Origin: Escherichia coli
Lineage (GTDB): Bacteria > Pseudomonadota > Gammaproteobacteria > Enterobacterales > Enterobacteriaceae
NCBI RefSeq assembly: GCF_003018115.1
Contig: NZ_CP027457.1
DNA: 64,000 nt
Strand: one strand, 5' to 3'
The translations under genes and the position numbers were made by a program. A model generated the notes under the pieces. That model saw only the letters and a program-made list of their open reading frames with translations. It was not told the origin of the DNA and did no database searches. This document shows positions 18,910 through 19,158 of the stretch, one piece after another; the stretch's first letter is position 1; each line of letters starts with the position of its first letter.

Positions 18910-19044
18910 GATTAATCCTTTAAACGAGTAGCTAAGCCGTTGAAAGCATACTCTTCTTTCCCTCCTGTTTAGCGCCTGATCTCCCTTTTCAGATTTCTGC
19001 CCGATATAAGACCTTTTCTTATGAGGTGTTTTTTTGTGGACTAA

Positions 19045-19158
19045 TATCTGTTGCAAGGTTATGGGTTCGCCCCGGCACTGGTTTATATCTCCGCCGTCGC
19101 GTTGATTGGCGCGCTCTCTTACATCCTGCTGGTGGGCGATGTGAAGCGCGTTGGCTAA
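19045..19158 (+). pseudogene. dgoT: Relic 3' end of a transporter gene, probably dgoT (37 codons, no start codon)
   Basis: Open frame [41 protein letters not shown] with no upstream start, convergent with and overlapping the cbrA stop by 3 nt; hydrophobic helix typical of an MFS C-terminus; in K-12 dgoT sits at exactly this position relative to cbrA. Confidence 0.45.

Follow-up and report, generated by a model that had tools for sequence, protein, structure and literature searches.

The yidX-cbrA gap of an Escherichia coli strain as the probable scar of an old, inherited deletion of the dgo operon

D-galactonate is a nutrient of the gut. Its catabolism in E. coli is the task of the dgoRKADT operon, which is under the control of the repressor DgoR and of an operator with two repeats (PMC12288454, PMC7674646), and DgoT is an SLC17-like MFS transporter that acts as a D-galactonate:H+ symporter (PMC6532931). 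Adaptation of E. coli to life in the gut of mice has repeatedly selected loss-of-function mutants of dgoR, and DgoT has been described as a determinant of Salmonella Choleraesuis virulence in pigs (PMC12288454). The dgo region corresponds to K-island KI#161 (K-loop#267) and is variable among porcine EPEC O45, the K-island naming being used for K-12 segments that are absent from the O157:H7 strains EDL933 and Sakai (PMC2749873). Several natural isolates have also been described that are devoid of structural dgo genes (PMC12288454) and, together with the listing of KI#161, these reports mean that loss of dgo was already known.

Here, we analyzed a window of 64,000 nucleotides from E. coli (contig NZ_CP027457.1) in which the operon is missing between yidX and cbrA. 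The gap between these two genes is very probably the scar of one old deletion, carried as an inherited allele that is the same as in O157:H7, with a D-galactonate-negative state as its expected consequence. The feature is a known, common and lineage-associated deletion allele, catalogued since the O157:H7 genome comparisons (PMC2749873); its age, its frequency and this K-island cataloguing were absent from the initial annotation of the sequence.

Layout of the locus and extent of the missing segment

The genes around the gap follow the order gyrB-yidB-yidA-yidX on one side and cbrA-yidR-yidQ-ibpA-ibpB-yidE on the other. The left flank, yidX (18253..18909, minus strand), codes for the lipoprotein-like YidX and the right flank, cbrA (19155..20219, minus strand), for a colicin M resistance lipid reductase, as established from the list of open reading frames (yidX) and the NCBI (PGAP) annotation of strain F9792 (NZ_CP024273.1), which is 100% identical to the window from 18253 to 20240. 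The two genes are 245 bp apart and none of dgoR, dgoK, dgoA or dgoD lies between them, which is the arrangement of the O157:H7-type allele. As intact reference we used strain WG5 (locus L002), where the order is yidX-dgoR-dgoK-dgoA-dgoD-dgoT-cbrA and where cbrA (8103-9167) converges on dgoT (6769-8106), the end of dgoT overlapping the cbrA stop by 4 nt. The dgoT stop retained in the window (19156-19158) overlaps the cbrA stop codon (19155-19157) in the way seen at intact loci. Therefore, the proposal of the initial annotation that the operon is missing between yidX and cbrA, in a region ordered in K-12 as cbrA-dgoT-dgoD-dgoA-dgoK-dgoR-yidX, is borne out, with the exact coordinates confirmed by the F9792 annotation and the gene order holding at the WG5-type locus. 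Other than the 3' relic of dgoT, tblastn found no dgo genes within the 64-kb window. Weak matches to DgoT (~21% identity) at 44975-45898 and 46441-47655 represent distant MFS paralogues.

Alignment to L002 places window 18850-19044 on 3047-3242 (the start of yidX and the yidX-dgoR intergenic region) and window 19045-19200 on 7993-8148 (the 3' end of dgoT and cbrA), and L002 3243-7992, a segment of 4,750 bp, is absent relative to WG5. The two parts of the gap, 18910-19044 and 19045-19158, are the yidX-dgoR intergenic region and the dgoT 3' end, respectively, as had been anticipated; the deletion previously estimated at ~4.5 kb is confirmed, its size being slightly larger, and one breakpoint indeed falls within dgoT, at codon 408/409. 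The second is located between yidX and dgoR, and the two meet in the sequence CTAA/TATCTG (19044..19045). The intergenic remnant to its left (18910..19044, 135 bp, aligned to L002 3107-3242) ends in ...TTTTTGTGGACTAA, just upstream of the position where ATTGTAGTACAAC starts in intact loci. This motif is the first of the two DgoR operator repeats (PMC12288454, PMC7674646); it begins right after the left breakpoint position in intact loci as well as in the outgroup locus L013, and is missing from the window. Since the left breakpoint directly precedes this repeat, the promoter and operators were lost along with dgoRKAD and 92% of dgoT. The part of the remnant closest to the junction (18985..19044) is hypervariable, with ~14 mismatches per 60 bp against WG5, carries the motif CTTATGAGGTGT, and varies among dgo+ strains too.

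No microhomology was found at the breakpoints when K-12-type sequence was taken as the parent, the true parental allele having been a divergent one. The junction showed no IS end, transposase fragment or target-site duplication and no repeats in a repeat search, and neither foreign DNA nor a match to an Rfam family was present in the gap. An IS- or transposon-mediated origin was rejected, because the entire gap aligns to native flanks. The likely mechanism would be a single old event of illegitimate recombination that removed the 4,750 bp holding the promoter, the operator, dgoR, dgoK, dgoA, dgoD and codons 1-408 of dgoT, and that left behind the 135 bp of intergenic region and the last 37 dgoT codons, with neither promoter nor start. 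Beyond the scar, 52 nt past the dgoT stop and inside the 3' coding region of cbrA, the repeat search showed that the window retains a hairpin (19210..19242, plus strand) made of an 11-nt inverted repeat (AAAGCCGGTGC/GCATCGGCTTT) followed by TTTTT. A simple terminator scan made no call at this position, and the terminator-like hairpin may be the element that would have ended dgo operon transcripts.

Inheritance of the allele and the divergent tract beside the scar

The dgoT 3' relic (19045..19158, plus strand) comprises codons 409-445 and the stop codon, approximately the last transmembrane helix of an MFS transporter, for which 12 helices are expected. Within the window, tblastn aligned it to DgoT residues 409-445 with 36 of 37 amino acids identical (E=4.5e-15; the difference is A411L), and in F9792 exactly 19045-19158 (+) is annotated by NCBI as a pseudo 'hypothetical protein, missing N-terminus'. 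The start-less frame of 37 codons noted in the initial annotation is indeed the DgoT C-terminus, ending with the 4-nt overlap with cbrA that dgoT has in L002, and a frame unrelated to DgoT, which was named there as the observation that would speak against a deletion, is not what we found. Each element of the deletion reading held.

yidX and cbrA are contiguous in 413 of 5,426 complete E. coli genomes (7.6%), the others splitting the query at the junction, and dgoRKAD is present in 5,022 of the 5,426 (92.6%) and absent from 404. In the eight deletion-type genomes sampled, which are the window, O157:H7 F8952 and six more from baboon, otter, duck, chicken and human, the junction ...TTTTTTTGTGGACTAA/TATCTGTTGCAAGG is identical, and this identity of junction nucleotides points to one event within E. 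coli. The genomes F9792, F8111-1SC3, O169:H41 F6326-C1, O169:H41 2014EL-1345-2 and LR882990 are 100% identical to the window over the locus. O157:H7 belongs to phylogroup E. ST182 O169:H41, including 2014EL-1345-2 and F6326-C1, is placed in phylogroup E as well (PMC8454413), and the allele would have been passed down to both O157:H7 and the O169:H41/ST182 ETEC within that phylogroup. Judging from these sequence matches, the deletion allele is inherited and common, not private to the window strain, and its junction could serve as a simple lineage marker.

Next to the junction, the sequence is not a plain fusion of two K-12 segments, a point absent from the initial annotation. In the dgoT relic, differences from WG5 fall at 8 of the first 31 bases and at none of the remaining 83 (Fisher p=1.4e-5 for clustering), and the divergent tract so delimited (19045..19075, plus strand) shows its 8 differences in 31 bp against all functional E. 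coli dgoT alleles. Six of the eight are synonymous changes at third positions (binomial p=0.02) and the other two make the A411L codon, and the deletion-haplotype consensus shows 9 differences, 7 of them at third positions (binomial p=0.008). Counted in 100-bp windows, 21 sites of 18989-19087 differ from WG5, against 0-3 in the windows on either side. The search for a donor in E. coli used a chimeric query made of K-12 dgoT upstream and the window's relic, and every full-length match kept the 8 mismatches; the tract was carried by 0 of ~5,007 functional E. coli dgoT 3' ends. A degenerate pattern for either allele, run on one genome per species, matched only E. whittamii, which is K-12-like, and two metagenome scans gave 0 matches each to the donor allele or other deletion haplotypes. 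Among 110 cluster representatives of full-length DgoT, leucine at position 411 was seen in none. The tract shares the variant states TAT, CAA and CCG with the outgroup locus L013, and the O157:H7 tract is shorter, with K-12-like GCA CCT in the place of GCC CCG.

The tract, with its mostly synonymous differences, counts against a simple deletion in a K-12-like ancestor with neutral decay afterwards, which does not predict it; some divergent functional allele must have existed before the deletion, and the searches above did not recover one. The left side (18985-19044) is less informative in this respect, because it is hypervariable even among dgo+ strains. We infer that the dgoT allele hit by the deletion was far more divergent than all those sampled, and the tract points to an allele that would be either old or introgressed. 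After the deletion, the relic would drift neutrally as non-functional DNA; the distal 83 bp would have stayed identical to functional alleles probably by recombination with dgo+ E. coli, which overwrote the flanks, and possibly also because of their position just downstream of cbrA. The original and much more divergent haplotype would survive only in the ~90 bp surrounding the junction; any exchange reaching across the scar would bring the operon back. Such erosion by recombination is supported by the O157:H7 tract being shorter than that of the window, and divergence of genus level, mostly synonymous, next to the scar would make a compact and modestly new example of recombination eroding the flanks of an old deletion.

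A yidX-relic-cbrA locus is also found in E. albertii, which was sampled as one genome and a few near-identical contigs. A protein search with the 45-aa C-terminus returned fragments only, among them a 40-aa 'D-galactonate transport' fragment of E. albertii TW07627 (P0023) that led to this locus (L006). Two candidates were not retained: P0020, rejected as a relic, is a frameshifted dgoT in another genus, and P0011, set aside, probably stems from a chimeric contig, its N-terminus being unrelated to DgoT and its gene context unrelated as well. Between the conserved anchors CAGATTTCTGCCCGA and GGTTAYGG, which flank the junction, the distance is 52 nt in the window and 51 nt in E. albertii, and the motif CTTATGAGGTGT is common to the deletion haplotypes of both species and missing from dgo+ intergenic alleles. 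The same breakpoints and derived flank characters are present in both species, in the case of E. albertii in one genome and its near-identical contigs.

These observations bear on whether the deletions of E. coli phylogroup E and E. albertii were independent events at a hot spot. The 28 nt spanning the junction are only ~57% identical between the species, the synonymous sites at which the E. coli relic diverges have K-12-like states in E. albertii, and pairwise distances among the three haplotypes in the junction window are about equal, all of which would fit separate origins. However, two deletions of 4.75 kb without microhomology are not expected to agree within 1 nt at both ends, as the anchor spacing indicates, and both haplotypes share the derived CTTATGAGGTGT and are without the C of dgo+ intergenic alleles. 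We consider independent events unlikely; the evidence favors one deletion allele common to E. albertii and E. coli, and the shared breakpoints are a modestly new point.

The operon was found in E. whittamii and in the non-Escherichia outgroup locus L013, so presence of dgo is the ancestral state. A wider scenario is possible, and we offer it tentatively: the dgo deletion may be a single ancient allele across E. albertii and E. coli phylogroup E, with the ~90 bp proximal to the junction as all that is left of the dgo operon of a divergent, unsampled Escherichia-like lineage. In that case O157:H7 and its relatives would be D-galactonate-negative by introgression or through a very old polymorphism, and recombination with dgo+ E. 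coli would have erased the foreign flanks to within ~30-60 bp of the scar.

Other features of these loci were observed along the way. yidX shows ~30-35% DNA divergence between E. albertii (L006 5219-5875; also L005 5278-5934) and the window (18253-18909), while the neighbours yidA and cbrA are merely 5-12% diverged between the species, and in E. coli AR_0017 the gene at the yidX position is annotated only as 'hypothetical protein'. It seems that the alleles of yidX diverge deeply and that recombination breakpoints are located close to the 5' end of the gene. In the non-Escherichia enterobacterial locus (L012/L013 3829-5123; GCA_009853255.1 and a Logan contig), the order is yidA-dgoRKADT-torS and dgoT is split into ORFs of 389/390 aa and 40 aa by an apparent frameshift at about codon 405, not far from where the junction is located in E. 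coli.

Fate of the relic and dgo genes elsewhere

With 37 codons, against 430-445 aa in full-length homologues, the relic is not a complete ORF for a functional DgoT. It could still have been kept by a function of its own, either as a single-helix membrane peptide of 35-40 aa or as a 3' region or terminator of the convergent cbrA transcript. In favor of such a role, a stretch of 83 bp in the relic shows 100% identity to functional alleles, the same stretch is ~97% identical in E. albertii, where the whole of cbrA is 8-12% diverged, and the E. albertii version has an ATG with GAGGTG 6 nt before it and is called as a 40-aa protein. However, the relic of E. coli has neither start codon nor promoter, an in-frame TAA at 19042-19044 closes the frame, and the sole possible start after it is a TTG that has no Shine-Dalgarno sequence. 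Among deletion haplotypes, the changes that the relic acquired later were mostly nonsynonymous (four, K>T, A>T, F>V and L>F, against two synonymous), no terminator-like hairpin was found inside it on either strand, no terminator or sRNA was found in the gap and Rfam gave no match, and the stretch is equally conserved in dgo+ genomes. We regard a retained function as very unlikely, and the relic is probably a decaying, non-functional pseudogene fragment. The E. albertii ORF of 40 aa (MYEFVAQGYGFASAL...) occupies L006 6001-6123; GAGGTG is also present in the window at 19023-19028, where it is followed by a two-codon frame, GTG-GAC-TAA.

Instead of being lost, the dgo genes could have been relocated, with a working D-galactonate pathway at another chromosomal site or on a plasmid. 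Some observations are compatible with relocation in E. coli, as a second-site dgoD is seen in ~9-11 deletion-type genomes outside the window lineage, plasmids carry dgoRKAD matches at 12 places, and a dgoR fragment adjoins IS911 on a plasmid. Against this, a chimeric query joining window 19045-19900 to 400 bp of dgoD matched one place per record in F9792 and the four other window-identical chromosomes, which means that dgoD is not found elsewhere on these five, and their dgoT 3' end was likewise found in a single place. The number of genomes without any dgoRKAD (404) is set against 413 of the deletion type, and nothing dgo-like was seen in the 64-kb window. The search for dgo genes elsewhere, which the initial annotation had put forward as a check, returned no second dgoD on F9792-type chromosomes, and relocation in the window strain seems to us highly improbable.

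The window strain is therefore predicted to be unable to grow on D-galactonate, since kinase, aldolase, dehydratase and transporter are all missing from the chromosome; our literature search found no stated D-galactonate-negative phenotype for O157:H7, ST182 or E. albertii. Loss of the locus is not always loss of the pathway, given the deletion-type genomes with dgoD at a second site. EC1515 (NZ_CP021844.1), EC974, 4FM, 3CM, SM107, APEC37 and DSM 103246 show a second place for dgoD and for the junction query, and second-site dgo in such genomes suggests occasional re-acquisition or mobility of the operon. On the 186-kb plasmid p2 of E. coli EC20 (NZ_JBXRYH010000003.1; L011 8001-8502), a stretch of yidX-dgoR intergenic sequence that corresponds to window 18926-19004 is located, together with a truncated dgoR, between IS911 and an IS66 fragment. 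This match was set aside as a captured chromosomal intergenic/dgoR fragment that is irrelevant to the window locus.

Finally, the reverse polarity, with the short form as the original state and K-12-like strains gaining the operon between yidX and cbrA by insertion, could draw on the Escherichia-specific nature of these flanks and on the location of the operon between yidA and torS in outgroup L013, but it is refuted, and has next to no probability, because an insertion cannot leave a start-less DgoT C-terminus (36/37) with the 4-nt cbrA overlap of the intact gene, and because 92.6% of E. coli genomes carry dgo, as do E. whittamii and the outgroup.

Comparison with known systems

Compared with dgoRKADT of K-12, the window has homologous flanks, intergenic remnant and last 37 dgoT codons, whereas it has lost the promoter, the operators, all four genes for enzymes and regulator and 92% of dgoT. 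The natural isolates reported without structural dgo genes keep dgoR (PMC12288454), unlike the window allele, which is without dgoR too. E. albertii TW07627 shares with the window the yidX-relic-cbrA architecture, the junction position within 1 nt and the derived left-flank motif, but the ~50 nt around the junction are strongly diverged, and its relic differs in being K-12-like at synonymous sites and in forming a 40-aa ORF with its own ATG.

The closest known system is O157:H7, from which KI#161 is absent. The locus, the missing gene content and the junction nucleotides (O157:H7 F8952) are alike, although the relics differ at 4 of 114 bases, the divergent tract of the window is slightly longer (GCC CCG vs GCA CCT), and the window copy comes from another phylogroup E lineage (O169:H41/ST182 ETEC). 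Considering the gut and virulence roles of D-galactonate, dgoR and DgoT, lineage-wide loss of the pathway would mark a niche difference for phylogroup E pathogens, O157:H7 and O169:H41 ETEC alike.
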